From contig DASTFE010000176.1 in NCBI GenBank assembly GCA_035708905.1, positions 1 to 54,143 of the forward strand: a stretch of 54,143 nucleotides of DNA. The letters are read 5' to 3'. Below the pieces are notes generated by a model. The model made no database searches and was not told where the DNA came from. It was given only the letters and a program-made list of their open reading frames with translations. A program made the position numbers and the translations under genes. Of the stretch, positions 23,749 to 48,061 are shown piece after piece; within the stretch, counting starts at the first letter, position 1, and each line of letters begins with the position of its first letter. Origin of the DNA: Acidimicrobiales bacterium. Its GTDB lineage: Bacteria; Actinomycetota; Acidimicrobiia; Acidimicrobiales; VFJN01.

Positions 23749-23774
23749 GATGCCCGTGCCCGGGCACGCCGGCC

Positions 23775-27767: not shown

Positions 27768-27810
27768 GCACCTCGTTCCCGTCGGCTGTCGCCGCGGTAA
27801 TGCTAGGAGC

Positions 27811-28749
27811 GTGGGCACGCCCGACGCGTCACCGCTGCGGCGCGCCGCCCGGCTCGTCGCCGCGGTGGGCCTGCTCGCCGCGGCCTGCGGCGACGGCCGG
27901 ACCGGCGACGACGCCGGGCCCCCGCCGGGCCTCGGGGTGGCGTCGTTCAACTTCGCCGAGAGCCGGCTGGTGGCCGAGATCTACGCCCAGGCGCTCGAAG
28001 GCGAGGGCATCCAGGTACGGCGCGAGCTCGACCTGGGCCCCCGCGAGCTGGTGCAGCCCGCGCTGCGCCAGGGGCTCGTCGACGTCGTGCCCGAGTACCT
28101 GGGCTCGGCGCTGACCAGCGTCGACCCGGCGGCCGAGGTCGACCCCTCGGTACCAGCCGACGTCCGGCGCCACCTCGACGCGGCGGTCGATCCCTGGGGC
28201 CTGCGGGTGCTCGAGCCGTCGGCGGCCCAGAACCAGAACGGGCTGGCGGTCACCCGGGCGACGGCCGAGCGCCTGGACCTCGAGGTCACGAGCGACCTGC
28301 GGGGCGCCGCCGCGGAGCTGACGATCGGCGGGCCGCCGGAGTGCCCCGACCGCCCCTACTGCCTTCCCGGACTGGCCGAGGCGTACGGGCTGACGTTCGC
28401 CGAGTTCCGGCCGCTCGCCGACCAGGCGTACGTCCGCCAGGCCCTCGCCGACCGCGTGATCGACGTGGGGGTGCTGTTCACCACCGACGGGGCGCTCGCC
28501 GGGGGCGACCTCGTGCTGCTGGGCGACGACCGGGGGCTGCAACCGGCCGAGAACCTGGTGCCCATGGTGCGGGCCGAGGCGCTGGCGGCACCGGGCGGCG
28601 ACCGGGTGGCGGCGACCCTCGACGCGGTGTCCGGCCACCTCACGACCGCCAACCTGCGGTTCCTCAACTGGCGGGTGTCGGTCGCCGGCAACGACCCCGC
28701 CGACGAGGCGCACGCGTGGCTGGTCCGCCAGGGCCTGGTCGAGCGGTGA
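27811..28749 (+). CDS. Glycine-betaine/osmoprotectant-type (OpuAC family) ABC substrate-binding lipoprotein.
   Basis: Signal plus lipobox LVAAVGLLAAAC. VASFNFAESRLVAEIYAQALEGEGIQV....LVDVVPEYLGSAL. The alternative ATG at 27766 gives a longer signal peptide. Confidence 0.8.
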   Translation: MGTPDASPLRRAARLVAAVGLLAAACGDGRTGDDAGPPPGLGVASFNFAESRLVAEIYAQALEGEGIQVRRELDLGPRELVQPALRQGLVDVVPEYLGSALTSVDPAAEVDPSVPADVRRHLDAAVDPWGLRVLEPSAAQNQNGLAVTRATAERLDLEVTSDLRGAAAELTIGGPPECPDRPYCLPGLAEAYGLTFAEFRPLADQAYVRQALADRVIDVGVLFTTDGALAGGDLVLLGDDRGLQPAENLVPMVRAEALAAPGGDRVAATLDAVSGHLTTANLRFLNWRVSVAGNDPADEAHAWLVRQGLVER

Positions 28750-30085: not shown

Positions 30086-30219
30086 GGGGACCTCCAGGGT
30101 CGGCCGGCTCCACCGGCATTCTGCCACGGCGGGTGGGACGATCGGCACTTGCCCCACGGCGCCGGCAGGGGCACGGTGGGTGCGGTACGGGCGCGCCGCT
30201 GCCGGCCGAGGAGGTCCGC

Positions 30220-30987
<768 letters not shown>

Positions 30988-30988
30988 C

Positions 30989-33535
30989 GTGCTGCTGACG
31001 GCGATCCGCAACCTGCTGGCCCACAAGCTGCGGCTCTTGACCACGGGACTGGCGGTGATGATCGGCGTGGCCTTCATGGCCGGCACGCTCGTGCTCACCG
31101 ACACGATCCAGAAGACCTTCGACGACCTCTTCACCGACGCCTTCGAGAACACCGACGCCCTGGTGCGCGCCGAGGCGTCGTTCGACGACCCCAACGGCTT
31201 CGGCGAGCTGCGCGGCCGCATCGACGCCTCGCTGCTCGACGAGGTCGAAGACGTCGACGGCGTCGCCCTGGCGGCCGGCGACGTGTGGGGCTTCGCGCAG
31301 GCGGTCGACCGCGACGGCGATCCCATCGGCAACCCCGGCGCCGGTTCCCCCACCTTCGGCACCAACTGGACGGCGAGCGAGCTGAACACGTGGACCCTCG
31401 TCGAGGGCGACCCGCCCCGCGGTGACGAGCAGGTCGTGTTCGACAAGGGGACCGCCGACGACGGCGGCTTCGGCGTCGGCGACCAGGCGACCGTCCTCGT
31501 GCAGGGCGCACCCCTCGAGGTGACGGTCTCGGGCATCGCCCGCATCGGTGGGGCGGACTCGCCGGGCGGCGCCAGCTTCACCATGTTCACCACCGAGGCG
31601 GCCCAGCGCTACGTGGGTGAGGTCGGCAAGTTCGACAGCATCTCGATCGCCGCAGAGGACGGGGTGTCGCAGGACGAGGTGGTCGAGCGCATCGCGCCCA
31701 CCCTGCCCGACGGGATCGAGGTGGTGACCGGCGCCACGGTCACCGAGGAGAACCAGGACGCGCTGCGCGAGGGGCTGTCGTTCTTCAACACCTTCATGCT
31801 GGTCTTCGCCGTGGTGGCGCTGCTCGTGGGCGGCTTCATCATCTTCAACACGTTCTTCATCACGGTCGCCCAGCGCACCCGCGAGAACGCCCTGCTGCGG
31901 GCGATCGGCGCCACCCGCCGCCAGGTCCTGGCCGCCGTGCTGATCGAGGCACTGGCCATCGGCCTGATCGCCTCGGCGCTCGGGCTGGTCGCCGGCATCC
32001 CCCTCGCCGCCGGGCTCAAGGCGCTGCTGGCCGGCTTCGGCTTCGAGATCCCCGCCGGGGGGATCGTCCTGGCGACCGGCAGCGCGGTGCTGGCCTTCTC
32101 GGCCGGGGTGATCGTGACGGTGCTGGCCGCCGTGTCGCCCAGCCGGAAGGCGGGCAAGGTGCCGCCGGTGGCCGCCATGCGCGACGTGGCGGTCGGCAGC
32201 ACCGGCTACGGGTCGCGGCAGCGCATCATCGTGGGCGTCCTCATCCTCGTCCTGGGCGCGGCCGCCCTGCTCTACGGGCTGTTCGGTGATCCGGGCAGCG
32301 CGCTGGCCGTCGTCGGCCTCGGCGTGCTGCTCGTGTTCTTCGGCGTCTCGGTGCTGGGGCGCACGGTGGCGCTGCCGCTCAGCCGGGTCATCGGCCTGCC
32401 CCTGCCCCGCGTGCGCGGCATCGCCGGGCAGTTGGCCCGCGAGAACGCCATGCGCAACCCCAAGCGCACCGCGGCGACCGCCTCGGCGCTGATGATCGGC
32501 GTGGGGCTGGTCAGCTTCATCACCATCTTCGCCGCGTCGACCAAGGCGTCGTTCAGCAACACCGTCGACGAGGCGTTCACCGGCGACTTCATCGCGACAT
32601 CGGGACAGATGGGCGTGGGCGGCGTGTCGCCCGAGTTCACCGAGCGGGTGAACGACCTGCCCGAGATCGAGGCCGCCGGCGGCATCCGGGCCGGCCTGGC
32701 CGCCATCGACGGCGACTCCGAGTCGCTCATCGGCGCCAGCCCCGAGGCGTTCGAGATCTTCGACGTGGGGCCCGTGGCGGGCACACCGGACGACCTCGAC
32801 GAGACCTCGATCGCGGTCAGCGAGCAGACCGCCGATGACGAGGGCCTCGCCGTCGGCGACCGCGTGACGGTGGACTTCACCTCCACCGGCGAGCAGGACA
32901 TGACGGTGGCGATGGTGTACGCCGAGAACGCGGCGGCGGGGAACTGGATCCTCGGCCTCGACGCCTTCGAGGCCAACTACCCCGATCAGATGGACGTGCA
33001 GGTCTTCGTGAGGAAGGCCGAGGGCGTGCCGTCGGCCGAGGCGCTGGCCGCGGTCGAGGAGGTTGCCGACGACTTCCCGGGCGTCAGCGTGCTCGACCAG
33101 ACCGAGTACAAGGAGGAGCAGATGGCCTTCGTCGACCAGATGCTCGGGCTCGTCTACGCCCTGCTGGCGCTGGCCATCATCATCGCCCTGCTGGGCATCG
33201 GGAACACGCTCGCGCTCTCGATCGTCGAGCGCACCCGCGAGCTGGGCGTGCTGCGGGCGGTGGGCATGACGCGCAGCCAGCTCCGGTCGGCCATCCGCTG
33301 GGAGTCGGTGATCATCGCCGTGCAGGGGGCCCTGCTCGGCCTGATCATCGGGCTGTTCTTCGGCTGGGCGCTCGTCACCGCGCTCGAGGACGAGGGCCTC
33401 AACACGTTCGCCGTGCCGTTCACCAGCCTGGTGGTCGTGGTGGTGCTGGCCGCGCTGGCCGGCGTCGTCGCCGCGGTGCTGCCCGCCCGCCGGGCGTCGC
33501 GCCTCGACGTGCTGCGGGCGGTGGTGACCGAGTGA
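30989..33535 (+). CDS. ABC transporter permease with duplicated FtsX-like domains.
   Basis: 848 aa with two MacB_PCD/FtsX modules (...RTRENALLRAIGATRRQV... and ...RTRELGVLRAVGMTRSQL...). GTG lies 1 nt after the ATPase stop. Confidence 0.9.
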   Translation: MLLTAIRNLLAHKLRLLTTGLAVMIGVAFMAGTLVLTDTIQKTFDDLFTDAFENTDALVRAEASFDDPNGFGELRGRIDASLLDEVEDVDGVALAAGDVWGFAQAVDRDGDPIGNPGAGSPTFGTNWTASELNTWTLVEGDPPRGDEQVVFDKGTADDGGFGVGDQATVLVQGAPLEVTVSGIARIGGADSPGGASFTMFTTEAAQRYVGEVGKFDSISIAAEDGVSQDEVVERIAPTLPDGIEVVTGATVTEENQDALREGLSFFNTFMLVFAVVALLVGGFIIFNTFFITVAQRTRENALLRAIGATRRQVLAAVLIEALAIGLIASALGLVAGIPLAAGLKALLAGFGFEIPAGGIVLATGSAVLAFSAGVIVTVLAAVSPSRKAGKVPPVAAMRDVAVGSTGYGSRQRIIVGVLILVLGAAALLYGLFGDPGSALAVVGLGVLLVFFGVSVLGRTVALPLSRVIGLPLPRVRGIAGQLARENAMRNPKRTAATASALMIGVGLVSFITIFAASTKASFSNTVDEAFTGDFIATSGQMGVGGVSPEFTERVNDLPEIEAAGGIRAGLAAIDGDSESLIGASPEAFEIFDVGPVAGTPDDLDETSIAVSEQTADDEGLAVGDRVTVDFTSTGEQDMTVAMVYAENAAAGNWILGLDAFEANYPDQMDVQVFVRKAEGVPSAEALAAVEEVADDFPGVSVLDQTEYKEEQMAFVDQMLGLVYALLALAIIIALLGIGNTLALSIVERTRELGVLRAVGMTRSQLRSAIRWESVIIAVQGALLGLIIGLFFGWALVTALEDEGLNTFAVPFTSLVVVVVLAALAGVVAAVLPARRASRLDVLRAVVTE

Positions 33536-33559
33536 GCCGTCCGACGAGGAGGACGTGAC

Positions 33560-33994
33560 ATGCGGGTCAGCGAGTTGATGCACACGCCGGCGGTCACCTG
33601 CCGCTCCGGGGCCACGATCGGCGAGGTCGCCCGCCAGATGCGAGACCGCAACGTGGGCAGCGTGGTGGTCGTCGACGACATCGGCTACCTCGCCGGCATC
33701 GTGACCGACCGGGACGTGGCCCTGCGGGGCGTCGCCGAGGGGCGGCCGGGCGAGGAGCCGGTCGACGAGATCATGACCCGCAACGTCGCCACCGTGCCGG
33801 CCCGGGCCGACGTCGCCGACGCGGCGGCGCTGATGGTCAAGCGCCGGGTCCGCCGGCTGCCCGTCGTCGACGACGCCGGCGCACCCCACGGGATGCTGGC
33901 GCTCGACGACCTGGTCCGCCAGTTGGGCCACGACGCCGACGCGCTGGCCGACACGGTGATGATCCAGGCCGCCGACCTGCCGGGCGGCCCGTGA
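33560..33994 (+). CDS. CBS-pair domain protein.
   Basis: VSELMHTPAVTC...VGSVVVVDD.GYLAGIVTDRDVALR...IMTRNVATV...MVKRRVRRLPVVD. It is a paralogue of the gene at 46227. Confidence 0.85.
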   Translation: MRVSELMHTPAVTCRSGATIGEVARQMRDRNVGSVVVVDDIGYLAGIVTDRDVALRGVAEGRPGEEPVDEIMTRNVATVPARADVADAAALMVKRRVRRLPVVDDAGAPHGMLALDDLVRQLGHDADALADTVMIQAADLPGGP

Positions 33995-34034
33995 CGTGTG
34001 ACCCGGCCCCGGCGACCGGCCCGGCGGCGCCCCG

Positions 34035-34919
34035 TCAGCCGCGGGCCGCGGGCTGGACCAGGACGGGTGCCGGGCTGCGGTGGACGATCTTGGCGGCCTC
34101 GCTGCCGAGCGCGGCGCGGGCCACCCCGCGGCGGGCGTGCGACGTCGCGACGACCAGAGCGGCCGGGTGGCGCTCGAGGTGCTCGCCGATGCCGATGTGC
34201 GGGTAGGCGAGGCCCCACATGACCTCGCGGTCCACCGCCAGGCCCCGCAGCTCCGGGCGGGCCGCCATCGCCTCGAGGTAGACGCGGGGGTCGCCGTCGG
34301 GCGGATAGTGCCCGTCCGCGTGCCCCTGCTCGGGGGCGACGAGGATCGGGTCGGTGGCCGTGATCAGCGAGACCCGCAGCCCCAGGGCCCGGGCCCAGGT
34401 GGCTGCCAGCGGCAGCGCCTGCTCGGCCAGGGGCCCGCCGTCGAGGCAGACGAGCAGGCGGGCGGCCGCCTCGTTCGTGTGGGCCACGGCGCGGGGACCG
34501 ACGGCGACCAGGGGAGCCTCGCCCCGGGAGGCCATGTCGGCGAACGTCGACCCGACGACGGCGGCGGAGCGCGACCGGCCGTGGGTCGCCATGCACACCA
34601 GGCACGGGTCGAGCTCGGCGGCCGTCGCCAGGATGGCCGCCGCGACGTCGCGGTCGTCCGACACGTGGGGCGTGGCCCCCGGCATGCGGCCCGCGATCTC
34701 GTCGGCGTAGCTCTCGTACCACCAGCGCTCGTCCCGCGCCACGCGGGCGGCGACGTAATGGAGGGTCGCGTCGAAGCGGTCGGCGAGCCACGCGGCCGGG
34801 GCCAGCGCCCGCTCGGCCAGATCGGAGCCGTCGATCGGCACCAGCACCGCGCCGTAGCGGACGGCGGGGGGCGGCGCAGGCGCGGACGCCGCGGCGTTCG
34901 TCTCACCGGAGCGTGTCAC
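34035..34919 (-). CDS. Tandem-domain universal stress protein (UspA family).
   Basis: VLVPIDGSDLAERAL...CMATHGRSRS...LLVCLDGGPLAEQAL...LVVATSHARRG...GSEAAKIVHRSPAPVLV. Confidence 0.85.
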   Translation of the reverse strand: MTRSGETNAAASAPAPPPAVRYGAVLVPIDGSDLAERALAPAAWLADRFDATLHYVAARVARDERWWYESYADEIAGRMPGATPHVSDDRDVAAAILATAAELDPCLVCMATHGRSRSAAVVGSTFADMASRGEAPLVAVGPRAVAHTNEAAARLLVCLDGGPLAEQALPLAATWARALGLRVSLITATDPILVAPEQGHADGHYPPDGDPRVYLEAMAARPELRGLAVDREVMWGLAYPHIGIGEHLERHPAALVVATSHARRGVARAALGSEAAKIVHRSPAPVLVQPAARG

Positions 34920-34953
34920 ACCCCGAGCATGGCCCCTGGTCGACGACGATCCC

Positions 34954-34968
34954 AGGGCCCAAGGTCAC
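34954..34968. promoter_or_regulatory. DosR/DevR-like box centred in the divergent USP-USP promoter.
   Basis: AGGGCCCAAGGTCAC (reverse complement GTGACCTTGGGCCCT). It lies 35 nt from each start codon. Confidence 0.5.
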
Positions 34969-35002
34969 GTATCGTCGAGGCACCGCAGCCGGAGGGAGCA
35001 CC

Positions 35003-35806
35003 GTGCAGTTACCGTTCACCGAGATCGTCGTCCCGCTCGACGGGTCACCGACCGCCGAGCGGGCGATGGGCCCCGCCCTCGATCTGTCCCGGCGCACCGG
35101 CGTGCCGCTGCGCGTCCTCAGCCGGGCACTGCCCGGCGAGAAGGAGGAGCTGACGACGTACCTGGCCGGCGTGGCCGACCGGTACGCCGCGCTGGCCGAC
35201 GTCGAGACGCTGGTCACGGGCCGCGACGACGTGGCCGCCGCCATCGTCGACGGTCTCGAGCCGGGCTCGCTCGTCTGCATGTCGTCGCACGGCCGCACCG
35301 GCCTCGTCCGGGCGGCGCTCGGCAGCGTGGCCGAGGCGGTCATGCGCACCCTGCGGCAACCCGTCCTCGTGGTCGGTCCCGAGGTCAGCTCCGGTCGGGC
35401 CCTGTCCGGCCGGGTGGTCGCCTGCCTCGACGGCTCGCCCGCGGCCGACCTCACGCTCGGGCCGGCTGCGCAGTGGGCGGCCGCTCTCGGGCTGCCCCTG
35501 TGGCTGGTCTCGGTCGTCGACCCGGCGGTGGCCACCCCCGAGGCGCTGGCCGCGGGCGACGTGGTCGAGTCGGGCCACCTGGCGTCGCTGGCCGAGCGGA
35601 TCGGGGGCGTCGAGGGGTGGGACGTGCTGCACCGCGACGACCCGGCCGAGGCGCTCGCCGAGCTCGACGGCCGGGCCGAGGTGGCGGTGCTGGTGATGGC
35701 GACGCACGGCCGCACCGGGTGGGACCGCCTGCGGCTCGGCAGCGTCACCGTCGGCACGGTGCGGCGCTCGCCCGTGCCGGTGCTGGTCGTCCCCGCCGCG
35801 CCGTAG
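35003..35806 (+). CDS. Tandem-domain universal stress protein (UspA family).
   Basis: GTG at 35003 with GGAGGGA at 34991-34997. IVVPLDGSPTAERAM...CMSSHGRTG...VVACLDGSPAAD...LVMATHGRTGW...GSVTVGTVRRSPVPVLVV. Confidence 0.85.
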   Translation: MQLPFTEIVVPLDGSPTAERAMGPALDLSRRTGVPLRVLSRALPGEKEELTTYLAGVADRYAALADVETLVTGRDDVAAAIVDGLEPGSLVCMSSHGRTGLVRAALGSVAEAVMRTLRQPVLVVGPEVSSGRALSGRVVACLDGSPAADLTLGPAAQWAAALGLPLWLVSVVDPAVATPEALAAGDVVESGHLASLAERIGGVEGWDVLHRDDPAEALAELDGRAEVAVLVMATHGRTGWDRLRLGSVTVGTVRRSPVPVLVVPAAP

Positions 35807-35849
35807 TTCGGGCCGCCGGGCGGCGGCGCGGGGTGGTCCCGTGGCCGTC

Positions 35850-35864
35850 GGGACCTTCGCCCCT
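35850..35864. promoter_or_regulatory. DosR/DevR-like box upstream of the cupin gene.
   Basis: GGGACCTTCGCCCCT is an identical 15-mer to the reverse complement of 41882-41896. It is preceded by GGTCCC-N9, which forms a GGTCCC...GGGACC inverted repeat. Confidence 0.5.
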
Positions 35865-35891
35865 GCCTCGCCCGCCGCCGTGGGTGCGACC

Positions 35892-36275
35892 ATGCGGGTG
35901 ATGACGAACATCGACCAGCCCGAGGCAGCGACCGTCGCGACGCTCGTGACCCGTGCGGCGTCGGATGCGCTGGCCTGGCATCCCCTCGAGCCCTTCGACC
36001 GCGTCGACTACAAGCTGCTGTGGCGGTCGGGCAAGTCGGTCGCCGGGATCATGCGCGTCGGGCCCGGCGGCTCGGTGAGCCCGCACACCCACCAGCGCAC
36101 GCACCACCACCTGTGGGTGCTCGAGGGCACGGCCGAGATGCTGGGCGAGCGCGTCGGCCCCGGCACGTACCTGCACGTGCCGGCCGGCGTCGAGCACGGC
36201 ATCAGCGATCCCGGCGACGAGGGCTGCACCTTCCTCTACCTCTACCTGCGCGAGCCGGACGCCGCGGCCACGTAG
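35892..36275 (+). CDS. Cupin-domain protein (ChrR-like cupin).
   Basis: GGSVSPHTHQRTHHHLWVLEGTAEM....GTYLHVPAGVEHG. ATG at 35892 (35901 is an alternative start). Confidence 0.7.
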   Translation: MRVMTNIDQPEAATVATLVTRAASDALAWHPLEPFDRVDYKLLWRSGKSVAGIMRVGPGGSVSPHTHQRTHHHLWVLEGTAEMLGERVGPGTYLHVPAGVEHGISDPGDEGCTFLYLYLREPDAAAT

Positions 36276-36496
36276 GCGACGAACCCGTCGACCGACGCCA
36301 CCTGCGGGTAGTCCCGCTCGGGGACCTCGATGCCGGTCTCGTCGTAGAGCGCGCTCACCAGGTTGAGGAAGTCCATCGAGTCGAGCTCGGCCTCTTCCTG
36401 CAGCGGCGCCGCCGGGTCGAGGCCGTCGAGGTCGACCTCGGGGGCGATGCCGTGGAGCAGCCGGGCGAGCAGGGTGCGGGTCTCGGCGGCGTTCAC
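36242..36496 (-). CDS. Stand-alone acyl carrier protein (phosphopantetheine attachment site).
   Basis: 84 aa. ...PLQEEAELDSMDFLNLVSALYDETGIEVPE... (DSM serine motif). GTG at 36496 overlaps the E2 stop (GTGA). Its 3' end overlaps the convergent cupin gene by 34 nt. Confidence 0.7.
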   Translation of the reverse strand: MNAAETRTLLARLLHGIAPEVDLDGLDPAAPLQEEAELDSMDFLNLVSALYDETGIEVPERDYPQVASVDGFVAYVAAASGSRR

Positions 36497-37722
36497 AGGT
36501 CCTCCGGATGCTGGAGCAGGCGGTCGATGGCGTTCAGCAGGCGGGCGCCGATCATGCCGTCCGTGGCCCGGTGGTCGGCGGCCAGCGTGGCCCGTACGGT
36601 GGGGCGCACGCCGAGCATGCCGCCGCAGGCCCAGGGCCGCTCGGCCACCCGCCCGAAGCCGACCAGCGCCACCTGGGGCGGGTAGATGACCCCGTGCACC
36701 TCGTCGACCCCCTGGTCGCCCAGGTTGGTGACGGTGAGGGTGGGGTCGGACATCTCGGAGCTGCGCAGCCGCCCGGCCCGGGCCCGGCCGACCAGGTCGC
36801 GCAGGGCGGCCATCAACTCGTCGAGCGTGAGCCGGTCGGCGTCGTGGATGGCGGGGGCGATCAGGCCGCCGCCCCGCAACGACACGGCGACGCCCAGGTG
36901 GACCGCCGGCGACGGGCGGTACGAGCCGTCCCAGAAGCCGTTGAGCGCAGGGACCTCGCGGGCCGCGAGCGCCGTCGCCTTGAGCAGCAGCGCACCGGGG
37001 AGCAGGCGCTCGGACACCGACCGCTGCTCGTTGGTCTCGGCGAGCCACGCCAGCGCGGTCGCCATGTCGATCGTCGTGGCCAGGTGGTAGTGGGGGATCT
37101 CCCGCGCCGAGCGGGCCATGAGCGCGCCGATGGCGCGGCGCATCGCCGCCTGGCGGTCCTCGCGGCGGCCCGGCGGGCCGGGCACGGCGGCCTCCGGCGC
37201 GGCCGGCGCCGGTACCACCGTGGCCCGGTCGAGGTCGGCGGCGACCACCGCGCCGCCCGGCCCCGAGCCGGCGACGGCGGCGAGGTCGATGCCCCGCTCG
37301 GCCGCACGGCGCCGAGCCAGCGGCGACGCCCGGAGGTGGGCGGCGACCGGCGCGACGGTGGGCGCGGGCTCGGCCGTGCCGGGCCGGGCCGCCGGCTTCG
37401 CCTTGGCCTTGCGGGGCCGGGCCGCCCGCTTGCGGCCGGCTGCCACGGCTCGGGTCGGTCGTGCGGCCGCGGCCGGCGCGGCGGGCGCGACGGCCGCGAT
37501 GCGGGCGAGGGGGGCGCCGACGGGCGCCTCGGTGCCCGGCTCGACGAGCAGGGCCTCGACGACGCCGTCCTCGAACACCTCGACCTCGATGGTGGACTTC
37601 TCGGTGTCGACCACGGCGACGATGTCGCCCCGGTGGACGGTGTCACCCGGCTGTACCCGCCACTCGAGCAGCGTGCCGGCCTCCATGTCGGCGCCCAGCG
37701 ACGGCATCACGAACTCGCCCAC
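36493..37722 (-). CDS. Dihydrolipoamide acyltransferase (E2) of a 2-oxoacid/acetoin dehydrogenase complex.
   Basis: Lipoyl domain [18 protein letters not shown]...[12 protein letters not shown]. Subunit-binding domain [16 protein letters not shown]...GSGPGG. Catalytic motif [10 protein letters not shown]. Confidence 0.9.
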
Positions 37723-37724
37723 GG

Positions 37725-38696
37725 TCAGCCCCCGAGCTCCTTGGCCGCGGCCACGATGTCGGCGACCTGAGGGAGGGCGGCCTCCTCGAGGTGCCTGGCG
37801 TACGGCATCGGCACCTCGGCGCTGCACACCCGGCCCACGGGCGCGTCCAGGTCGTAGAAGGCCTCCTCGGTGATGCGGGCGCTGACCTCGGCCGCCAGGC
37901 TGCCCGTGCGCCAGCCCTCGTCGACGACGACGGCCCGGTGGGTGCGGGTGACCGAGCCGACGATCGTCGCGGTGTCGAGCGGCCGCAGCGTGCGCAGGTC
38001 GACCACCTCGGCGTCGATGCCGTCGGCCGTGAGCTGGTCGGCCGCCGCCAGCGCCTTGCCGAGCGTGCCGCCGTAGGCGACGACCGTCAGGTCGCGGCCC
38101 GGCCGTCGGACGGCGGCCCGGTCGATGTCGACGGCGCCGGCGTCGTCGGCCAGCTCGCCCTCGATGTTGTAGAGGCTGCCGTGCTCGAACACGAGCACGG
38201 GATCGGGGTCGCACAGCGCGGTCCACAGCATGCCCCGAGCGTCCTCGAGGGTGGCCGGCGCCACGACCCGGATGCCGGGCACGTGCGCGTACCAGCCCTC
38301 GAAGCTGTGCGAGTGCTGGGCGGCGAGCTGGCGGCCGGCGCCCGTCGTCATGCGCACCACCAGGGGCACGTTGAACTGGCCGCCCGACATGTGCAGCAGG
38401 GTGGCCGCGTTGTTCACGATCTGGTCGAGCGCCAGCAGGCTGAAGTTGACGGTCATGACCTCGACGATCGGGCGCATGCCCCCCAGCGCCGCGCCGATGC
38501 CGGCACCGACGAAGGCCGACTCGGACAGGGGGGCGTCCCGCACCCGGTCGGGCCCGAACTCCTCGAGCAGGCCGAGGCTGACGGCGAAGCAGCCCCCGTA
38601 GCGGCCGACGTCCTCACCCATGAGGAACACCCGGTCGTCGCGGGTGAGCGCGTCCCGCAGCGCAGCCCGCACGGCCTCGCGGTAGGTGGTCGTCAT
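37725..38696 (-). CDS. 2-oxoacid (pyruvate/acetoin-type) dehydrogenase E1 beta subunit.
   Basis: [32 protein letters not shown].....L..EFGP.RV.D.PLSE... Transketolase-like pyrimidine-binding and C-terminal domains. Confidence 0.9.
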
Positions 38697-39660
38697 GTCG
38701 TCACCTCGCTCGTGACGAACCGGGTCAGGTCCTCGACCGGCTCGAGCGTGCCCGCTCGGGCGCCGGCCACCGCCGCGTCAAGCTCGGCGGCCACCTCGTC
38801 CTCCATGGCCGCCAGGTCGTCGTCGCCGAGCGCGCCGTCCGCGCGGAGGCGCTCGGTCAGCAGGGCGATCGGGTCGCGCCGGCGCCACAGCTCCACCTCG
38901 TCCTTGGACCGGTAGCGCTCGGGGTCGTACATCGAGTGGGCGCGGAACCGGTAGGTGCGCAGCTCGAGGAACACCGGGCCGCCGCCGTCGCGGACCTGCA
39001 CCACCGCCCGGCGGGCGGCGTCGGCCACGGCCAGCACGTCCATGCCGTCGACGGGCCAGGCGGGCACGCCGTAGCCGGTGGCCCGCATGGCCAGGTCGGT
39101 GACCGCCTCGCTGCGTGCCAGGGCCGTGCCCATGGCGTAGAGGTTGTTCTCGCAGCAGAACAGCACGGGCAGGTGCCACAGCGCGGCCAGGTTCATGGTC
39201 TCGTGGAACTCGCCCTCGGCCACCGCGCCCTCGCCGAAGAAGCAGGCGGTGACCTGCCGGCGGCCCTGCATGGCGTCGGCCAGCGCCAGGCCCGCCGCCA
39301 GGGGGATGCCGCCGCCGACGATGGCGTTGCCGCCGTAGAAGCGGCTGGACCGGTCGAACAGGTGCATCGAGCCGCCCCGGCCGCGGCTGGTGCCCTCGAC
39401 CTTGCCGAGCATCTCGGCCATGATCGCCTCGGCCGGGACGCCCCGGGCCAGCGCGTGGCCGTGGTCGCGGTAGGTCGCCACCACGGCGTCCTCGGGGGCG
39501 AGGGCCCCCATCACCCCGACCGCGACGGCCTCCTCGCCGATGTACAGGTGGAGGAAGCCGCGGATCTCGGTGGCGCTGTACAGCTCGACGCAGCGCTCCT
39601 CGAACCGGCGGATGCGCAGCATCTCGCGCAGCAGGTGCAGCCCCTCGGCGCGCTCGACGG

Positions 39661-39664
<4 letters not shown>
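38693..39664 (-). CDS. 2-oxoacid (Aco/PDH-type) dehydrogenase E1 alpha subunit, TPP-dependent.
   Basis: [11 protein letters not shown]....[13 protein letters not shown]; GGSMH. TPP motif [39 protein letters not shown]; note GEG where GDG is usual. GTG at 39664 overlaps the upstream stop. Confidence 0.9.
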
Positions 39665-41462
<1,798 letters not shown>

Positions 41463-41466
<4 letters not shown>

Positions 41467-41831
41467 CCGGTGGCCGCCGCCCGGTCGGCCTCCTCGCTGA
41501 ACTCGAGGTAGGCCTCCCAGGCCCGCGGCGCGTACACGCTGGCCGTGCCGCCGCCGAGCAGCAGCGCGACGCCCAGCATCTCGGCGACCTCGCCCGGCGT
41601 GGCCCCGGCCCGGGCGGCGGCCTTGGCGTGGTAGGCGATGCACCCGTCGCACCTGGTGGCCACCGAGATGGCCACCGCCGCGGCCTCCTTGAGCCGGGTG
41701 GGCACCTCGCCCTCGGCCATGGCCGCCTGGTGGAGCGCCAGGAACCCGGACCAGGCGTCGGGGATGGAGTGGCGCAGCAGGCGGGTCGGCTCGCGCAGGT
41801 CCTGCAGGGTCTCGTGGTGACGGTGCGACAT
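41463..41831 (-). CDS. Carboxymuconolactone decarboxylase-family / AhpD-like protein with a CxxC motif.
   Basis: 122 aa. ...[26 protein letters not shown]... is an AhpD-core signature. It is the first gene of the six-gene operon. Confidence 0.85.
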
Positions 41832-41881
41832 GGGAACCCTCCCGTTCACTGCCATGGTGCGCCGCGCCGGTGGGGCCGGAC

Positions 41882-41896
41882 AGGGGCGAAGGTCCC
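41882..41896. promoter_or_regulatory. DosR/DevR-like box in the divergent promoter between the AhpD-like operon and the GNAT gene.
   Basis: AGGGGCGAAGGTCCC is the reverse complement of GGGACCTTCGCCCCT. It lies 51 nt from the AhpD-like ATG and 71 nt from the GNAT GTG. Confidence 0.5.
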
Positions 41897-41966
41897 CGCC
41901 CGGGCGGACCCGGCGGCGGGACGTACGGCCCTGGTGACCGGGTCCGGGTCGGGCCACGATGGGTGC

Positions 41967-42995
41967 GTGGAACCGACCACCGCCGGTGCGCGCCGCGTCG
42001 ACCTGCCGCCGGGCAGGGCGCTGGTCGTCCGCCCCGTCGGGCCGGGTGACGTGGACGCGCTCATGGCCCTCTACGACGGCCTGTCCGACGACGACCGCTA
42101 CCGGCGGTTCTTCTCCGCCTACCGGCCCGACCGCGCCTTCTTCGAGCGGGCGGCGGCCGTGCGGTCGCGCGGCGGTCACGGCCTGGTGGCGGTGGAGGCG
42201 GCGACGGCCCCCGAGCGCGAGCTGCGGATCGTCGGCGAGGCCAACTACGAGCTGCTGCCCAACGGCGATGGCGAGCTGGCCATGGCGGTGGCCGCCGACT
42301 GGCGGGGTTGGCTGGGCCCCTACCTGCTCGACGCGCTGGTCGACGCCGCCGCCGATCGGGGGGTGCCCAACCTCGAGGCGGACGTGCTGGCCACCAACGC
42401 GCCCATGCTGGCCCTGCTGCGATCGCGGGGCTACGCCAACCTGTCCAGCGACGACTGGGTGTCGCTGCGCCTGATCGTCGGCACCCGCGGCCGGACCCCG
42501 ACGTGGCCGCGCGGCGCCGTGCGCGGCGGCGGCCCCGCCGGGCCGCGGGTGCTGGTGGAGGCCCCGGGCGGGCGGTGGCACGCGGCGCGGGAGGCGGCGG
42601 ACGCCGGCTTCGACGTCATCGCCTGCTCGGGCCCCCGCGGCGGGCGGTGCCCGGCACTGGCCGGCGAGCCGTGCCCGCTGGTCGCCGGTGCGGATGCCGT
42701 CGTCGTGTCGCGCCCCCGCGACGACGAGCGGTGGCGCGCGCTGGTCGACGCCCACGCCCGGGCCCACCCCGGGGTGCCCGTGTGCGTCGAGCCCCGGCCG
42801 GGCGGCGACGTCGACGACCCGCGCCTGGTCGTGTCGATCATCGACCGGGTCACGGCGGCCGTCCGGCGGGGGGACGTCGGGACGATCGCCTCTGGACAGG
42901 AGGCGCCGGGTGCGCGCGCGCTGAACGTGGAGAGGAATGCGGAGACCGAGACACCTCCACGAGGAGGAGGTAGCGATGGCACTGATGCGACGTGA
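41967..42995 (+). CDS. Pat-type GNAT N-acetyltransferase with an uncharacterised Cys-containing C-terminal domain.
   Basis: [30 protein letters not shown]...[10 protein letters not shown]...[25 protein letters not shown]...[16 protein letters not shown]. The start is uncertain (GTG at 41967). The 3' end overlaps the hsp20 start by 20 nt. Confidence 0.65.
42879..42893. promoter_or_regulatory. Weaker DosR-like box about 83 nt upstream of hsp20, inside the GNAT coding sequence.
   Basis: GGGACGATCGCCTCT matches GGGACCTTCGCCCCT at 12 of 15 positions. Confidence 0.3.
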
Positions 42996-43413
42996 GCGGT
43001 TCGAGCTCCCCGACCTGTTCCAGATGGGCTTCCCGGAGCTGTTCCGGCGGATGACCGACGTCGAGCCCTTCACCGGCTGGCTGCGGGTGGAGGAGTACAC
43101 CGAGGACGGTTCGCTGGTCGTGCGGGCCGAGCTGCCCGACATCGACCCGGACAAGGACGTCGAGCTGTCCGTGACCGAGGGCATGCTCCACATCCAGGCG
43201 ACGCGCCAGGAGAAGTCCGAGAAGCGCGACAAGGAGATGTACCGGTCCGAGTTCCGGTACGGCTCGTTCGTCCGCAACATCCGGCTGCCCGAGGGCACGA
43301 AGGACGAGGACATCACGGCGTCGTACAAGGACGGCATCCTCGAGATCCGGGTGCCGATGCCCGAGCAGGCCGAGAAGGAGACCGTCACCCGGGTGCCCAT
43401 CACCCACGGGTGA
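42976..43413 (+). CDS. Hsp20/alpha-crystallin family small heat-shock protein.
   Basis: ATG at 42976 is preceded by GAGGAGGAGG. ...VRAELPDIDPDKDVELSVTEGMLHIQATR....RSEFRYGSFVRNIRLPEG...ITASYKDGILEIRVP. Confidence 0.9.
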   Translation: MALMRRERFELPDLFQMGFPELFRRMTDVEPFTGWLRVEEYTEDGSLVVRAELPDIDPDKDVELSVTEGMLHIQATRQEKSEKRDKEMYRSEFRYGSFVRNIRLPEGTKDEDITASYKDGILEIRVPMPEQAEKETVTRVPITHG

Positions 43414-43423
43414 CCACGGGCCT

Positions 43424-43456
43424 CGGGGCCCTGCCCTCCCGGTGGGCGGGGCCCCG
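43424..43456. terminator. Strong GC hairpin between convergent hsp20 and the P-type ATPase; putative bidirectional terminator.
   Basis: CGGGGCCCTGCCC (43424-43436) pairs with GGGCGGGGCCCCG (43444-43456), with loop TCCCGGT. There is one G-U pair and no clear U-tract. Confidence 0.45.
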
Positions 43457-43463
43457 GGTCGCG

Positions 43464-46082
43464 TCAGGCCGCCGGGCCGGTGACGGCGGCCACCTTCGCG
43501 GTGGCCGGTGAGCGGGCGCGCCGCCGGCGCTTGTCGAGGGCGTCGCCCGCCAGCAGCGCCGCCGCGGCCGCGAACGCCACCAGCCACCCGATCAGCGGCG
43601 GGCTCGCGTGCCCCAGCTCGCGCGCCACCGGCCCGATCAGCAGCATGGCCAGCGAGAGGCCGGCCTCGATGGCCACGGCGGCGATCAGCAGGCGGTTGGT
43701 CGTCCAGCCGAGGGCCCCGGGCGTGCGCGTCGCGCTGCGGCAGGCGAAGGCGTTGGCCGACTGGGCGACCACCACCGTGAGGAAGGCCGCCCCCGACGCC
43801 GCTGCCGCGGTGTGCCCACCCGGGAACGCCTCGCCGGGTCGCCACCCGAGCGCGACGAACGTCAGGACGAACGCCGCCATGGCGCTCGCCGCCTCGATCG
43901 GGCCGAGCAGGCCGAACGCCCGCTGGGCCACCCGCCCGCTCAGCAAGCGTCCCCCGACGGGCGGGCGGTCCAGCACGTCGCGCGCCGGCGGCTCGGCACC
44001 CAGGGCCACCGACGAGAAGGTGTCGGTGCCGATGTCGAGGGCCAGGATCTGCAGCACGCCGAGGGCGAGCGGGAACCGGCCGCCCGACAGTGCCCACACG
44101 AGGAACGGGGTGAGCTCGGCGACGTTGTCGGTGAGGGGGTAGGTGAGGAAGCGCCGGATGTTGACGAAGGTGGCCCGGCCCTGCTCGACCCCGGCGACGA
44201 TCGTGGCGAAGTGGTCGTCGAGCAGCACGAGGTCGGCGGCCTCACGGGCCACGTCGGTGCCCGAGCGACCCATGGCGATGCCGATGTCGGCCTCGTGGAG
44301 GGCCGGGCCGTCGTTGACGCCGTCGCCGGTCATGGCCACGACGTGGCCACGGGCCCGCAGCGCCCGGGCGATGCGCAGCTTGTCCTCGGGCGACACCCGG
44401 GCGACGACGATGCCGTCGTGGTCGAGCAGCGCGCCGAGCGCGCCCTCGTCGGCCGGCAGGTCGGCGCCCGTCACGACCGGATCGTCCCCCCGGCGCAACC
44501 CGACCTCCGTGCCGATCGCGGCGGCCGTCGCCGGGTGGTCGCCGGTGATCATCGCCACCTTGATCCCCGCGTGGCGGCACGCCTCGATGGCGCCGTCGAC
44601 GTCCTCGCGGGGCGGGTCCTCGAGGGCCAGCACCCCGAGCAGCTGCAGGCCGCACTCGGCCGCGGCGGCGGTGGCCGGCATGCCGTCGCCGAGCGGCCGG
44701 CCGGCGACGGCGAGCATCCGCAGACCCCGCCGGGTGAGCGCCTCGACGACCGGCGCCGCCGCTGCGCCGCCGGCGCACAGCGGCAGGACGGCGTCGGGTG
44801 CGCCCTTGACCACGATCTCGCCGTCGACCACGACGGACATGCGCCGCCGGCGCGGGTCGAACGGGAACCGCGCCGTGGGGGCGTGGTCGGCCCGGTCGGC
44901 ATCCGTGTCGATGCCGAGCCGTCGCGCCAGCACGTCGATCGCCGCCTCCGTCGGGTCGCCGTGGGCCACCCACGCCCCGTCGGACGGGTGGGCGTAGCCG
45001 GTCGAGCACCGCACCCCCGCGAGCGCGAGCCGGGCGAGGGCGGGGCCGGCGGCGGGATCCGGCAGCGTCACCGTCGCGTGCGGCTCGTAGCCGCTGCCGC
45101 TGATCCGGGCGCCGCCGGCCGGCGTCCAGGCCTCGACCACGGCCATCTGGTTGCGCGTCAGGGTGCCGGTCTTGTCGGTGCAGATGAAGGTGGTCGACCC
45201 GAGCGTCTCGACCGCCTCGAGGTCGCGCACCAGCACCTGGCGCCCGGCCATCCGCTCGGCGCCCCAGGCGAGCGACAGGGTCACGGTGGGCAGCAGCGCC
45301 TCGGGCACGAGGGCGACCGTGACGCCGATGGCGAACACGAACCCGTCCGCCGGGTCGTTGCCCAGCAGCAGCGCCAGGCCGAAGAAGGCACCGCCGACCG
45401 CCACCGCGATGGTCGCCACCGTGCGGACGACCCGGTGCAGCTCGTGCGCGAGCGGGGTCACCGGTTTGGCCGTCACGGTGGTCAGCCGGGCGATGCCGGC
45501 GAGCCGCGTGGCCGCACCGATCGCCCGCACGGTCGCATCGGCCTCGCCTTCGACCACGAACATGCCGGCCAGCACCTCGTCGCCCGGCCCCGCAGCGGTC
45601 GCCTCGCTCTCGCCGGTGAGCAGCGACGTGTCGACCAGCAGGCCGTGCGCCACGGTGACGACGGCGTCGGCGGGGACGCGGTCGCCCTGCCCGAGGGCCA
45701 GCAGGTCGCCCGTGACGACCTCGGTCGCATCGATCTCGATCCGCCGGCCGTCACGGCGGACCGTGATGCGGCGGGGCAGCAGGTCGCGCAGGCGCTCGGC
45801 CGCCCGGTCGGCGCGGGTCTCCTGCGCGAACGCGAAGAGGGCGTTCACCACGATCACGGCGAAGATGGCGATGCCGAGCTCGGGCAGGTCGGCGACGAAG
45901 GCGAGCACGCCCGCGACCCACAGCATGAGGGCGAAGAAGTGCACGAGCTGGTCGGCGAGCCGGCGCAGCGGGTGCGGCCGCCGGGGCGGTGGCAGGCGGT
46001 TGGGCCCGTCGCGGGCGAGCCGCTCGGCGGCCTCCTGCGACGACAGGCCGTCGCGGCCGGCCGCAGACAGGGTGTCGCGCAC
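43464..46082 (-). CDS. Cation-transporting P-type ATPase (type II, Ca2+/Mg2+-like; CtpF-like).
   Basis: GLSSQEAAERL...GPN N-terminus, TGES, the phosphorylation site CTDKTGTLT, MITGDH and TGDGVNDGPAL. About 10 TM segments. Confidence 0.9.
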   Translation of the reverse strand: MRDTLSAAGRDGLSSQEAAERLARDGPNRLPPPRRPHPLRRLADQLVHFFALMLWVAGVLAFVADLPELGIAIFAVIVVNALFAFAQETRADRAAERLRDLLPRRITVRRDGRRIEIDATEVVTGDLLALGQGDRVPADAVVTVAHGLLVDTSLLTGESEATAAGPGDEVLAGMFVVEGEADATVRAIGAATRLAGIARLTTVTAKPVTPLAHELHRVVRTVATIAVAVGGAFFGLALLLGNDPADGFVFAIGVTVALVPEALLPTVTLSLAWGAERMAGRQVLVRDLEAVETLGSTTFICTDKTGTLTRNQMAVVEAWTPAGGARISGSGYEPHATVTLPDPAAGPALARLALAGVRCSTGYAHPSDGAWVAHGDPTEAAIDVLARRLGIDTDADRADHAPTARFPFDPRRRRMSVVVDGEIVVKGAPDAVLPLCAGGAAAAPVVEALTRRGLRMLAVAGRPLGDGMPATAAAAECGLQLLGVLALEDPPREDVDGAIEACRHAGIKVAMITGDHPATAAAIGTEVGLRRGDDPVVTGADLPADEGALGALLDHDGIVVARVSPEDKLRIARALRARGHVVAMTGDGVNDGPALHEADIGIAMGRSGTDVAREAADLVLLDDHFATIVAGVEQGRATFVNIRRFLTYPLTDNVAELTPFLVWALSGGRFPLALGVLQILALDIGTDTFSSVALGAEPPARDVLDRPPVGGRLLSGRVAQRAFGLLGPIEAASAMAAFVLTFVALGWRPGEAFPGGHTAAAASGAAFLTVVVAQSANAFACRSATRTPGALGWTTNRLLIAAVAIEAGLSLAMLLIGPVARELGHASPPLIGWLVAFAAAAALLAGDALDKRRRRARSPATAKVAAVTGPAA

Positions 46083-46146
46083 CCGCAGATCCTCATCCAG
46101 GCGCCGGCCGCCGCGCCAGTACCCGCGCCGCCGGATCGGCCGGGCT

Positions 46147-46161
46147 GGTGACCTTCGGCCC
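46147..46161. promoter_or_regulatory. DosR/DevR-like box in the divergent promoter between the P-type ATPase and the CBS-domain gene.
   Basis: GTGACCTTCGGCCCT lies about 65 nt from both start codons. Confidence 0.5.
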
Positions 46162-46226
46162 TACAGCGCCCGCCCGGGCGGGAGGACCCTGGAGCGTGGA
46201 GAGCATGCTCGTCCAGGAGGTGCGCC

Positions 46227-46679
46227 ATGCACGCGAAGGAAGCCGCACGCAGGGAACCCGTGACCGTCGCCCCGGACGCCACCGTCACGACCGCCGCTCA
46301 GCTGATGGACGAGGCCGCCGTCGGGGCGCTGGTGGTCGTCGAGCCCGAGGGCCGCCCGGTGGGGATCGTGACCGACCGCGACCTCGTGGTGCGGGCGCTG
46401 GCGCACCGGTGCGACCCGGAGGCCCGCGTCGACTCGGCGATGTCGACCGACCTCGTCACGCTGCCCGCCGACGCCGACCTGCGCGACGCCCTGGCGGTGT
46501 TCGAGGACCACGCGATCCGGCGGCTGCCGCTGATGGAGGGCGACCGGATGGTGGGGATGCTGACGATGGACGACCTCGTCGTCGACCTCGTGTCCGACCT
46601 CGGCCGCCTCACCCGGCCGATCCTCGGCCAGGTGCTGTTCGGCCACCCGGAGCCCGCCACGCCGGTGCCCACCGCCTGA
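46227..46679 (+). CDS. CBS-pair domain protein (Hrp1-like).
   Basis: VGALVVVEPEGRPVGIVTDRDLVVR...AMSTDLVTL...FEDHAIRRLPLMEGDRMVGMLTMDDL. Confidence 0.85.
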   Translation: MHAKEAARREPVTVAPDATVTTAAQLMDEAAVGALVVVEPEGRPVGIVTDRDLVVRALAHRCDPEARVDSAMSTDLVTLPADADLRDALAVFEDHAIRRLPLMEGDRMVGMLTMDDLVVDLVSDLGRLTRPILGQVLFGHPEPATPVPTA

Positions 46680-46699
46680 GCCGGATCGGCCCGCCCGGC

Positions 46700-47515
46700 T
46701 CAGCCCGGGGTCAGGAGCCGGGAACGGAAGAGGTCGAGCACGCGGTCGAGGGCGGCCCGGGTGGGTTGGCCGGGCTCGTCGATCAGGTGCTCGGTCAGCA
46801 CCGAGTGCGGGCTGCCGGCCGCCTCGGGGTTGGCCGACGCGGCGTCGAGCTCGACGGCGACGAACGCGTCGCCGAGCTGCTCGGCCAGGAACGCGAACCG
46901 CTCGGCCGGCACGAACCGGTCGCCGCGGAAGCGCAGGCCCAGCACCTGCAACCCCCCGGCCGCGCACCGATCCCTCACGGTGGCGAGCTCGTCGGGGGCG
47001 ATGTCGATGGAGCGCCTGGCCCGCCCGGTCACGCCGAGCGGCATCGACGGCTGCGACAGCACCGGGGCGAGCAGCCGCTCGTCGGTGGCCATCGCCAGCG
47101 CGAACCCCCCGGTGAAGCACATGCCCACCGCCCCGACCCCGGGGCCGCCGCAGCGGGCGTGCTCGTCGGCGGCCAGGGCGCGCAGCCACGCCACGACCGG
47201 GGACGAGCGGCCGGTGGCCAGCACCGTGAACTCGCGGCTCACGCACGCCGGCACCACCGACCGCAGCATGGTGGCGGTGCGGGCGAGGCGGCCGCCCACG
47301 TAGGGGTCGCGACCCGGCTCGCCGAACAGGTGGGGCAGCACCGCGGTGCACCCGATGGCCGCCACCCGGTCGGCGAACTCGACGACCTTGGGCGTGATGC
47401 CCGGCATCTCGGCGACGACGATCACCGCCGGGCCGGAGCCTCGACGGTAGACGGTGCGCTCGGCGCCGTCGTGGGCGAACATCGTGCGCTCGTAGGCGGC
47501 GAGGACGTCTGTCAC
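46700..47515 (-). CDS. Dienelactone hydrolase family protein.
   Basis: Alpha/beta-hydrolase pattern with the nucleophile elbow GAVGMCFTGG (Cys nucleophile, as in DLH) and a C-terminal ...SPHSVLT. Confidence 0.75.
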   Translation of the reverse strand: MTDVLAAYERTMFAHDGAERTVYRRGSGPAVIVVAEMPGITPKVVEFADRVAAIGCTAVLPHLFGEPGRDPYVGGRLARTATMLRSVVPACVSREFTVLATGRSSPVVAWLRALAADEHARCGGPGVGAVGMCFTGGFALAMATDERLLAPVLSQPSMPLGVTGRARRSIDIAPDELATVRDRCAAGGLQVLGLRFRGDRFVPAERFAFLAEQLGDAFVAVELDAASANPEAAGSPHSVLTEHLIDEPGQPTRAALDRVLDLFRSRLLTPG

Positions 47516-47635
47516 GGGGGCGGACCGTAGCGGCGACCGGCGTGCCGCGCGCCGCCGGGGCGGGCTGTTCGGCCCTGCGCCCGGGCACCACTAGGGTGCT
47601 CGCGCGGGCGCACCGACGACGGAGGAGAAGGGTTC

Positions 47636-48061
47636 ATGCCGGCACGCACAGCTTCGGCTCGCTGGGAGGGCGGCCTCCAGGACGGCAAGGGCACCATGCG
47701 GTTCGGGAGCGGGGCCTTCGAGGGCCAGTACTCGTTCGCGTCACGGTTCGAGCAGGGCGAGGGCACCAACCCCGAGGAGCTGATCGGCGCCGCCCACGCC
47801 GGCTGCTTCTCGATGGCCCTCTCCGGCGGCCTCGGGCGAGCCGGGCACCCGCCCACCTCGGTCGAGACGACGGCCACGGTCCACATCGAGCGGGGCGACT
47901 CGGGCTTCCAGATCTCGCGCATCGACCTCGACTGCACCGCCGTCGTGCCGGGCCTGGACGACGAGGGCTTCCAGGCGCTGGCCGCCACCGCCAAGGCCAC
48001 GTGCCCGGTGTCGCAGGCGCTCGCCGGGGTCGACATCAACCTCGACGCCCGCCTGGGCTAG
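47636..48061 (+). CDS. osmC: OsmC-family peroxiredoxin.
   Basis: ASARWEGGLQDGKGTM....TNPEELIGAAHAGCFSMAL....AKATCPVSQAL contains the two conserved OsmC cysteines. Confidence 0.9.
   Translation: MPARTASARWEGGLQDGKGTMRFGSGAFEGQYSFASRFEQGEGTNPEELIGAAHAGCFSMALSGGLGRAGHPPTSVETTATVHIERGDSGFQISRIDLDCTAVVPGLDDEGFQALAATAKATCPVSQALAGVDINLDARLG

Follow-up and report, generated by a model that had tools for sequence, protein, structure and literature searches.

A DevR/OsdR-type box in fixed promoter geometry in a dormancy-regulon-like island of an Acidimicrobiales genome

Which protein reads the short box that recurs before the stress genes of an Acidimicrobiales bacterium, and how far does the corresponding regulon extend? 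The stretch in question, hereafter the window, is the 54,143-nucleotide contig DASTFE010000176.1 of assembly GCA_035708905.1, which has a base composition of 75% G+C and a non-coding share of 7.4%. A preliminary description of this DNA had pointed to related 15-mers in a block of about 14 kb holding genes for universal stress proteins (USPs), a cupin, Hsp20 and CBS-pair proteins, and had likened them to the boxes of the dormancy regulator DosR (DevR) of Mycobacterium tuberculosis. The box is enriched in non-coding DNA, conserved in relatives, fixed in its orientation and in its distance to the promoter, and identical in sequence to known OsdR sites of Streptomyces. It is probably the operator of a NarL-family response regulator of the DevR/DosR-OsdR type, which would be encoded elsewhere in the genome and would act by class II activation.

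All six 15-mers quoted in the preliminary description are present in the sequence, five of them at the positions given there; the sixth, GTGACCTTCGGCCCT, lies at 46148-46162 rather than at 46147-46161, a difference of 1 nt. The cupin box and the box between the AhpD-like operon and the GNAT gene are exact reverse complements, as had been reported. The formula proposed for the motif, GGGrC-N4-GyCCC, fails, with 3 matches against 2.5 expected and no match at the first and fourth sites, which begin GTGAC. With up to two mismatches allowed, the consensus GKGACCTTSGSCCCT is found 8 times against 1.5 ± 1.1 expected, a count reached by none of 100 dinucleotide shuffles, and seven of these eight matches are non-coding. 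When a position weight matrix (PWM) built from the four strong sites of the preliminary description is run on the window, it finds three more strong non-coding boxes (23775-23789, 23806-23820 and 41918-41932). Because circularity was to be avoided, two matrices were also derived from outside the window, one from 13 sites in the relatives' contigs L082, L085 and L091, with no window sites, and one from the 25 OsdR sites that Urem et al. 2016 list for S. coelicolor in their Table 1. The seven best window matches of the first are the seven non-coding sites (P ~1e-8 under random placement). The four best matches of the OsdR matrix are likewise all non-coding, as are 10 of its top 20; the box before the GNAT gene ranks first, and the matrix raised the osmC site to second and a new site, 30135-30149, to third place. 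A chance origin in G+C-rich DNA, or an origin as copies of a dispersed repeat, could appeal to the base composition and to the chance frequency of the loose formula. Against it stand the shuffles, the exclusively non-coding top matches of two independent matrices and the conservation at orthologous promoters described below; in addition the box flanks share no similarity and the sites are not part of a longer repeat family. No Rfam family matches the boxes, and with the unrelated flanks this rules out a dispersed repeat or an RNA motif. Chance or repetition as the source of the boxes is refuted, and its probability is negligible. Since boxes also lie at 23775 and 23806 and probably at the candidate site 30135, that is at 23.8 kb and probably 30.1 kb, the regulon reaches beyond the block of about 14 kb to which the preliminary description had confined it.

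The box and the promoter elements next to it (Table 1) follow a common geometry. When 23 sites taken from the window and its non-identical relatives are aligned, they give the logo G1 K2 G3 A4 C5 C6 T7 T8 C9 G10 N11 C12 C13 C14 T15 (G16), with nothing conserved further out. Exactly 22 nt after the box, seven of the ten window sites display a -10-like hexamer of the form nAnnnT (CATGCT, CACCAT, GACCCT, GACGAT, CATCGT, CACGAT and CACGGT), and in an eighth the hexamer is shifted by 1 nt; against a background of 1.5% per position for nAnnnT, this spacing corresponds to P ~2e-11. In-frame start codons are positioned 47-51 nt from the box start in five window genes, encoding the left USP, the GNAT, the metallophosphoesterase, the OmpR regulator and the cupin, and the remaining box-linked genes have short leaders with Shine-Dalgarno sequences. 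The exact pattern GGGACCTTCGNCCCT retrieved 120 metagenome contigs, and these show a similar peak: of 61 well-supported genes downstream of the box, 16 begin 47-51 nt from it, whereas the mirrored orientation yields 1 of 51 (Fisher P = 3e-4). Spacing and start codons thus describe an orientation-locked box, with its GGGACC half promoter-distal and its centre about 42 bp upstream of the putative transcription start, where a -35 element would otherwise begin. A centre near -42, as judged from leaderless starts and -10-like hexamers, is the position of a class II activator, as for DevR. In the target promoters of M. tuberculosis, the most start-proximal DevR site overlaps the -35 element (PMC3029386), and the promoter-proximal box of the window would abut or overlap the -35 region in the same way. 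The geometry also suggests corrected, leaderless starts for the metallophosphoesterase (GTG 23855), the cupin (ATG 35901) and the GNAT (GTG 41967), the last of which agrees with a shorter call of 335 aa in the relative L089.

Fixed orientation and fixed distance to a -10-like hexamer, with T15 falling at about -35, would also suit a promoter element that an alternative sigma factor recognises itself, as an unusual -35 or upstream element. Sigma region 4 is usually spaced 16-19 nt from the -10 element, and the box appears too far away for this contact: its conserved part ends 22 nt, and its strongly conserved GGGACCTT half lies 29-36 nt, upstream of the hexamer. It is because of this distance of 22-36 nt that direct reading by a sigma factor is very improbable. 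Moreover, the -10-like element resembles the housekeeping type, nAnnnT, and in Streptomyces the identical sequence is a binding site of a response regulator. A GGG conserved 17 nt beyond the box was considered as a SigB/SigF-like -10 element and rejected as inconsistent across sites, the consistent element being nAnnnT at offset 37 from the box start.

Three promoters show particular arrangements. The hsp20 box lies within the GNAT coding sequence and is thus under coding and regulatory constraint alike. Downstream of the osmC box by 15 nt, a perfect TAGGGT at 47592-47597 resembles the GGGTA -10 elements of the SigB/SigF type; the osmC promoter may be of another class, in which the box is placed so as to repress or co-regulate. 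The right-hand USP gene (35003) has no box of its own, and a TATCGT at 34970-34975, a perfect TANNNT, abuts the box of the left USP gene, so that binding there might occlude or modulate the right-hand promoter.

Contigs of relatives were reached through homologues of the AhpD-like protein, 75-98% identical to that of the window. Phylogenetic footprinting across this span finds boxes kept at the USP, cupin, CBS, GNAT, hsp20 and AhpD-Acs promoters, and sites are conserved at orthologous promoters in L081, L089, L090, L082, L085, L091, L212 and L213. The suggestion that the regulon has recruited the Acs/E1/E2/ACP operon, the cupin and the GNAT acetyltransferase is supported by the boxes kept upstream of their orthologues. 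In L081 (AhpD-like protein 98% identical) and in L089/L090 (clusters of at least 90% identity for Acs, Hsp20 and OsmC) the locus is syntenic and all of its boxes are kept. The left-USP box is kept in L090, the cupin box in L090 and L213, the hsp20 box in L089, a relative of roughly 90% protein identity, with a better consensus match (GGGACGTTGGCCTCT), and the osmC box in L089 although its upstream flank has diverged. Another Acidimicrobiales metagenome-assembled genome (MAG; L082/L083, 79%) has five co-oriented boxes preceding five transcription units in a row; for three of these boxes the called start is exactly 50 nt away. L085-L088 (77%) carry a box upstream of an AhpD-PPDK-Acs-E1-E2-ACP operon (PPDK, pyruvate phosphate dikinase), L091 (81%) has three divergent box pairs, and in L213 (79%) boxes precede CBS, a GNAT-like gene, the AhpD operon, cupin, USP and PPDK. 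The AhpD/Acs operon has a box upstream in seven of eight AhpD-anchored loci, and L217 has none upstream of its CMD gene. A box also stands before the AhpD/Acs operon in genomes of Jiangellaceae, Acidimicrobiia, Arthrobacter, Agromyces, Nanopelagicales, Streptosporangiaceae and Micromonosporaceae. Related islands (L212 2337-2705 and neighbours; L082 4267-5007; L217 8301-8969) further encode a ribosome hibernation factor (S30AE C-terminal domain), a baeRF-family protein, DUF2267, BON and Pyridox_ox_2 proteins, a ScdA/hemerythrin protein and a nitroreductase. These are typical dormancy or nitric oxide (NO)-stress functions, and several of the genes are preceded by boxes.

The GGG-N8-CCC architecture places the box in the DevR/OsdR type, as the preliminary description held, and the identity that it reported to the core of the M. 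tuberculosis consensus, GGGACTTTAGTCCC, is correct at 11 of 14 positions. OsdR is the DevR orthologue of S. coelicolor, with the derived consensus AGGGCCGATCGGCCCT (Urem et al. 2016, PMC5069765). Two published OsdR sites, CGGGACCTTCGGCCCT in the SCO5978/SCO5979 intergenic region, reported bound in electrophoretic mobility shift assays, and AGGGACCTTCGGCCCC, upstream of the USP gene SCO0167 and of narG2 (PMC5069765), are the very consensus found in the window. The right half of the box, TCGGCCCT, equals that of the OsdR consensus, a number of S. coelicolor sites are situated some 50 nt before the gene start, and the OsdR targets include USP genes and pyruvate phosphate dikinase, the latter being present in the orthologous operon of L085 and L213. 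In contrast, the Streptomyces consensus is a symmetric 16-mer with GGGCCG halves, whereas the promoter-distal half here is GGGACC and its orientation is fixed; unlike the OsdR regulon, this contig has no nitrate reductase genes. With the DosR regulon of M. tuberculosis the window shares, besides the box architecture, the target families alpha-crystallin Hsp20, USPs and CBS-pair protein, and a P-type ATPase gene adjoins a box. The M. tuberculosis boxes differ in being A+T-richer in the centre and symmetric, and its promoters often have two or more cooperative tandem boxes, whereas most promoters here have a single box, or one in each direction where they diverge. The Acs/PDH-like/ACP operon, the cupin, OsmC and the OmpR system are not known as targets of DosR in M. 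tuberculosis. When the 62 genes that follow the exact box in metagenomes are sorted by Pfam family, Pyridox_ox_2 (5), USP (4) and cytochrome bd (3) come first, followed by receiver+GerE (NarL-type) regulators (3), ferredoxins (3) and CBS, Hsp20 and CMD (2 each). Together with the USP, Hsp20 and CBS genes that lie downstream of boxes in the window, these similar families agree with the DosR-like content ascribed to the regulon.

The regulator was sought by window-wide domain annotation and by tblastn with M. tuberculosis DevR. A regulator 52-64% identical to DevR is encoded in 12 of the 120 exact-box metagenome contigs, often directly downstream of the box, and such box-adjacent proteins carry the JGI label 'response regulator DevR'. 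In L098 and L132, which represent other lineages, the DevR orthologue has a box 49-50 nt upstream, the geometry of autoregulation.

Several observations weigh against a DevR-type class II activator as the reader of the box. The 54-kb window encodes neither a NarL-type regulator nor a GAF-type kinase, the preliminary description having already noted that a NarL/LuxR regulator is missing there, and some ten related islands of the Acidimicrobiales type, 8-20 kb long, encode neither of the two. The situation differs in Mycobacterium and Streptomyces, where the regulator gene lies inside the island: devR-devS belong to the M. tuberculosis regulon locus, and osdR-osdK are part of the Streptomyces island and autoregulated. 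The DevR orthologues beside an exact box, where they could be placed, come from Micromonosporaceae, Modestobacter and Propionibacteriales and not from Acidimicrobiales. The motif is asymmetric, A4 and T15 having no mirror partners, and a symmetric dimer site would not need a fixed orientation. The hsp20 and osmC promoters deviate from the common spacing, with the -10-like element 7 nt further away in the former and 7 nt closer in the latter, and the transcription starts themselves are inferred.

One candidate reader lies within the window. Its sole two-component system, an OmpR-family regulator with a HAMP/HisKA kinase encoded on the minus strand, could read the box, autoregulate through the site at 23775-23789 and control the island 10 kb away; its own promoter has a perfectly placed box (CATCGT at offset 37, start codon at offset 47), and no related island offers a NarL regulator instead. 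OmpR/PhoB proteins, however, usually bind direct repeats with a periodicity of 10-11 bp and not a GGG-N8-CCC inverted repeat, and the 23-site logo has no conserved positions outside the 15-16 bp box. Related islands are without the OmpR regulator too, and a single exact-box contig encodes an OmpR-type relative, at 5 kb from the box, against the 12 with a DevR-type regulator. It is the NarL-type OsdR that binds the box sequence in Streptomyces, where a box before a further two-component system has a precedent, SCO6163c/6162c being among the predicted OsdR targets (PMC5069765). Control of the island by the OmpR system is thus quite improbable.

A factor of another family, CRP/FNR-type, WhiB-associated or a novel redox sensor, might also have converged on the operator or inherited it in Acidimicrobiales. 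The regulator was not located in this lineage, across the window and about ten islands, the motif lacks symmetry, and a site centred at -42 is classic for class II activation by CRP/FNR as well (about -41.5): the two arrangements have in common a dimeric site about 42 bp upstream, a -10 element and no recognisable -35 element, although the protein family differs and the starts here are deduced from leaderless codons and -10-like hexamers. The box is, however, unlike the actinobacterial CRP consensus TGTGA-N6-TCACA, the window showed no gene of the CRP/FNR family, and lineages with an adjacent DevR orthologue have an operator of identical sequence, geometry and target gene families. A reader from another family is unlikely. 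We give a small chance to a further scenario, in which the DevR-type operator of Acidimicrobiales has become uncoupled from a resident devRS locus and is read by another or a relocated regulator, for example via the box-controlled OmpR system, and drives a lineage-wide hypoxia programme centred on the AhpD-like/Acs/PDH-type/ACP pathway with orientation-locked, single-box, leaderless promoters.

For the preferred DevR/OsdR-type regulator the following sequence of events can be proposed. A hypoxia, NO or redox signal would lead to phosphorylation of the regulator, the dimer of which would bind the box centred about 42 bp upstream of the start, abutting or replacing the -35 element. By class II activation, the bound dimer would then recruit RNA polymerase to promoters with a -10-like nAnnnT as their only element, and many of the transcripts would be leaderless. 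The proposed regulon would comprise the USP, cupin, Hsp20, CBS and Pat-like GNAT genes, the AhpD-like/Acs/PDH-type E1-E2/ACP operon, the OmpR system and the metallophosphoesterase, and probably the ABC exporter and OsmC.

Genes of the window (Table 1) were called by third-position G+C and named by Pfam and NCBIfam, and the gene annotations of the preliminary description are upheld. In the AhpD-like operon the acetate-CoA ligase (Acs) matches NF003313 and the E1 alpha subunit TIGR03182, both above cut-off; the protein accessions are HET9609693 for Acs, HET9609696 for Hsp20 and HET9609700 for OsmC. The operon has no E3 gene, and the same is seen in L085, L091, L213, L217 and L001-L080. It is conserved in many phyla, with Acs at 63-71% identity in Nitrospira, Acidobacteriota, Deltaproteobacteria, Chloroflexota and others; a search of the genome collection with Acs returned only relatives of at most 71% identity, from many phyla, and in some relatives pyruvate phosphate dikinase is inserted in the operon. 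An AhpD-like protein encoded together with a lipoyl-E2 is reminiscent of the AhpD/DlaT peroxidase relay of mycobacteria. On the minus strand at 19459-23742, the box-preceded OmpR regulator and kinase are followed by a 92-aa protein, an ApbE flavin transferase and a ferric-reductase-like membrane protein, and these genes may form one redox-related unit under the box. Elsewhere in the window, a cluster at 3908-8555 encodes a CsoR-like repressor of the metal/persulfide type, a metallo-beta-lactamase-rhodanese fusion, a rhodanese/YgaP membrane protein, a SulP-STAS transporter and a carbonic anhydrase; it resembles a sulfide/persulfide detoxification unit and has no DevR-type box in front. An open reading frame with an OpuAC domain (27334-28749, plus strand) overlaps the 5' part of a PAP2-family gene (26070-27641, minus strand) by about 300 nt, and one of the two starts is probably mis-set.

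Table 1. Boxes, associated promoter elements and genes of the window. Offsets and distances are counted from the box start.
Feature	Position	Strand	Box sequence	-10-like element	Start codon	Context or basis of name
Box	23775-23789	-	GGGACCTTCGACCGT	CATCGT, 23747-23752	OmpR regulator start 23742, 47 nt	Upstream of OmpR-family regulator/kinase operon
Box	23806-23820	+	GGGACCTTGGCCTCT	GACGAT, 23843-23848	in-frame GTG 23855, 49 nt	Upstream of metallophosphoesterase gene
Weaker candidate box	30135-30149	+	GGGACGATCGGCACT	CACGGT, offset 37		Upstream of ABC ATPase/FtsX/CBS1 genes
Box	34954-34968	-	GTGACCTTGGGCCCT	CATGCT, 34926-34931	GTG 34919, 49 nt	Faces left tandem-USP gene
Box	35850-35864	+	GGGACCTTCGCCCCT	GACCAT, 35888-35893	ATG 35901, 51 nt	Upstream of cupin gene
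Box	41882-41896	-	GGGACCTTCGCCCCT	CACCAT, 41854-41859		Upstream of six-gene AhpD-like/Acs/E1/E2/ACP operon
Box	41918-41932	+	GGGACGTACGGCCCT	CACGAT, 41955-41960	in-frame GTG 41967, 49 nt	Upstream of GNAT (Pat-like) acetyltransferase gene
Weaker box	42879-42893	+	GGGACGATCGCCTCT			Upstream of hsp20, within 3' end of GNAT coding sequence
Box	46148-46162	+	GTGACCTTCGGCCCT	GACCCT, 46185-46190	ATG 46227, preceded by Shine-Dalgarno sequence	Faces second CBS gene; intergenic region common to P-type ATPase gene
Weaker OsdR-like box	47562-47576	+	GGGCTGTTCGGCCCT			Upstream of osmC; intergenic region common to dienelactone hydrolase gene
Target gene block, CBS1 through OsmC	33560-48061	both				Pfam/NCBIfam
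CBS pair (CBS1)	33560-33994	+				Pfam/NCBIfam
Tandem USP, left	34035-34919	-				Pfam/NCBIfam
Tandem USP, right	35003-35806	+				Pfam/NCBIfam
Cupin	35892-36275	+				Pfam/NCBIfam
Operon: AhpD-like CMD protein, acetate-CoA ligase, PDH-type E1 alpha, E1 beta, E2, ACP	41831 down to 36242	-				
GNAT, weak similarity to mycobacterial Pat	41934-42995	+				Pfam/NCBIfam
Hsp20	up to 43413	+				Pfam/NCBIfam
P-type ATPase	43464-46082	-				Pfam/NCBIfam
Second CBS pair (CBS2)	46227-46679	+				Pfam/NCBIfam
Dienelactone hydrolase	46700-47515	-				Pfam/NCBIfam
OsmC	47636-48061	+				Pfam/NCBIfam
ABC ATPase/FtsX permease/CBS1 genes	30220-33994					Downstream of candidate box 30135
Second target locus: OmpR system and metallophosphoesterase	21594-24778					Outside the block of the preliminary description
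HAMP/HisKA kinase of OmpR system	21594-23003	-				
OmpR-family response regulator	23011-23742	-				
Metallophosphoesterase	23855-24778	+				Divergent from OmpR system

Since the box is the same one that is bound by DevR in Mycobacterium and by OsdR in Streptomyces, the regulon is real but of a familiar kind, and what is new is its presence and anatomy in Acidimicrobiales. Also new are its extension beyond the block first described, the AhpD-like/Acs/PDH-like/ACP operon as a conserved member, and promoters of strict orientation with a leaderless geometry. A full-text literature search returned no paper linking DosR or DevR with Acidimicrobiia. The AhpD-like/Acs/PDH-like/ACP operon, the cupin, the Pat-like GNAT and the OmpR-type system are flagged as candidate hypoxia functions, and the rule of box geometry corrects gene starts and predicts leaderless transcripts in MAGs. 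The DevR/OsdR dormancy-type regulon is thereby extended from Mycobacterium and Streptomyces to the deep-branching, largely uncultured Acidimicrobiia, with operator sequence, promoter geometry and core targets conserved across Actinomycetota.

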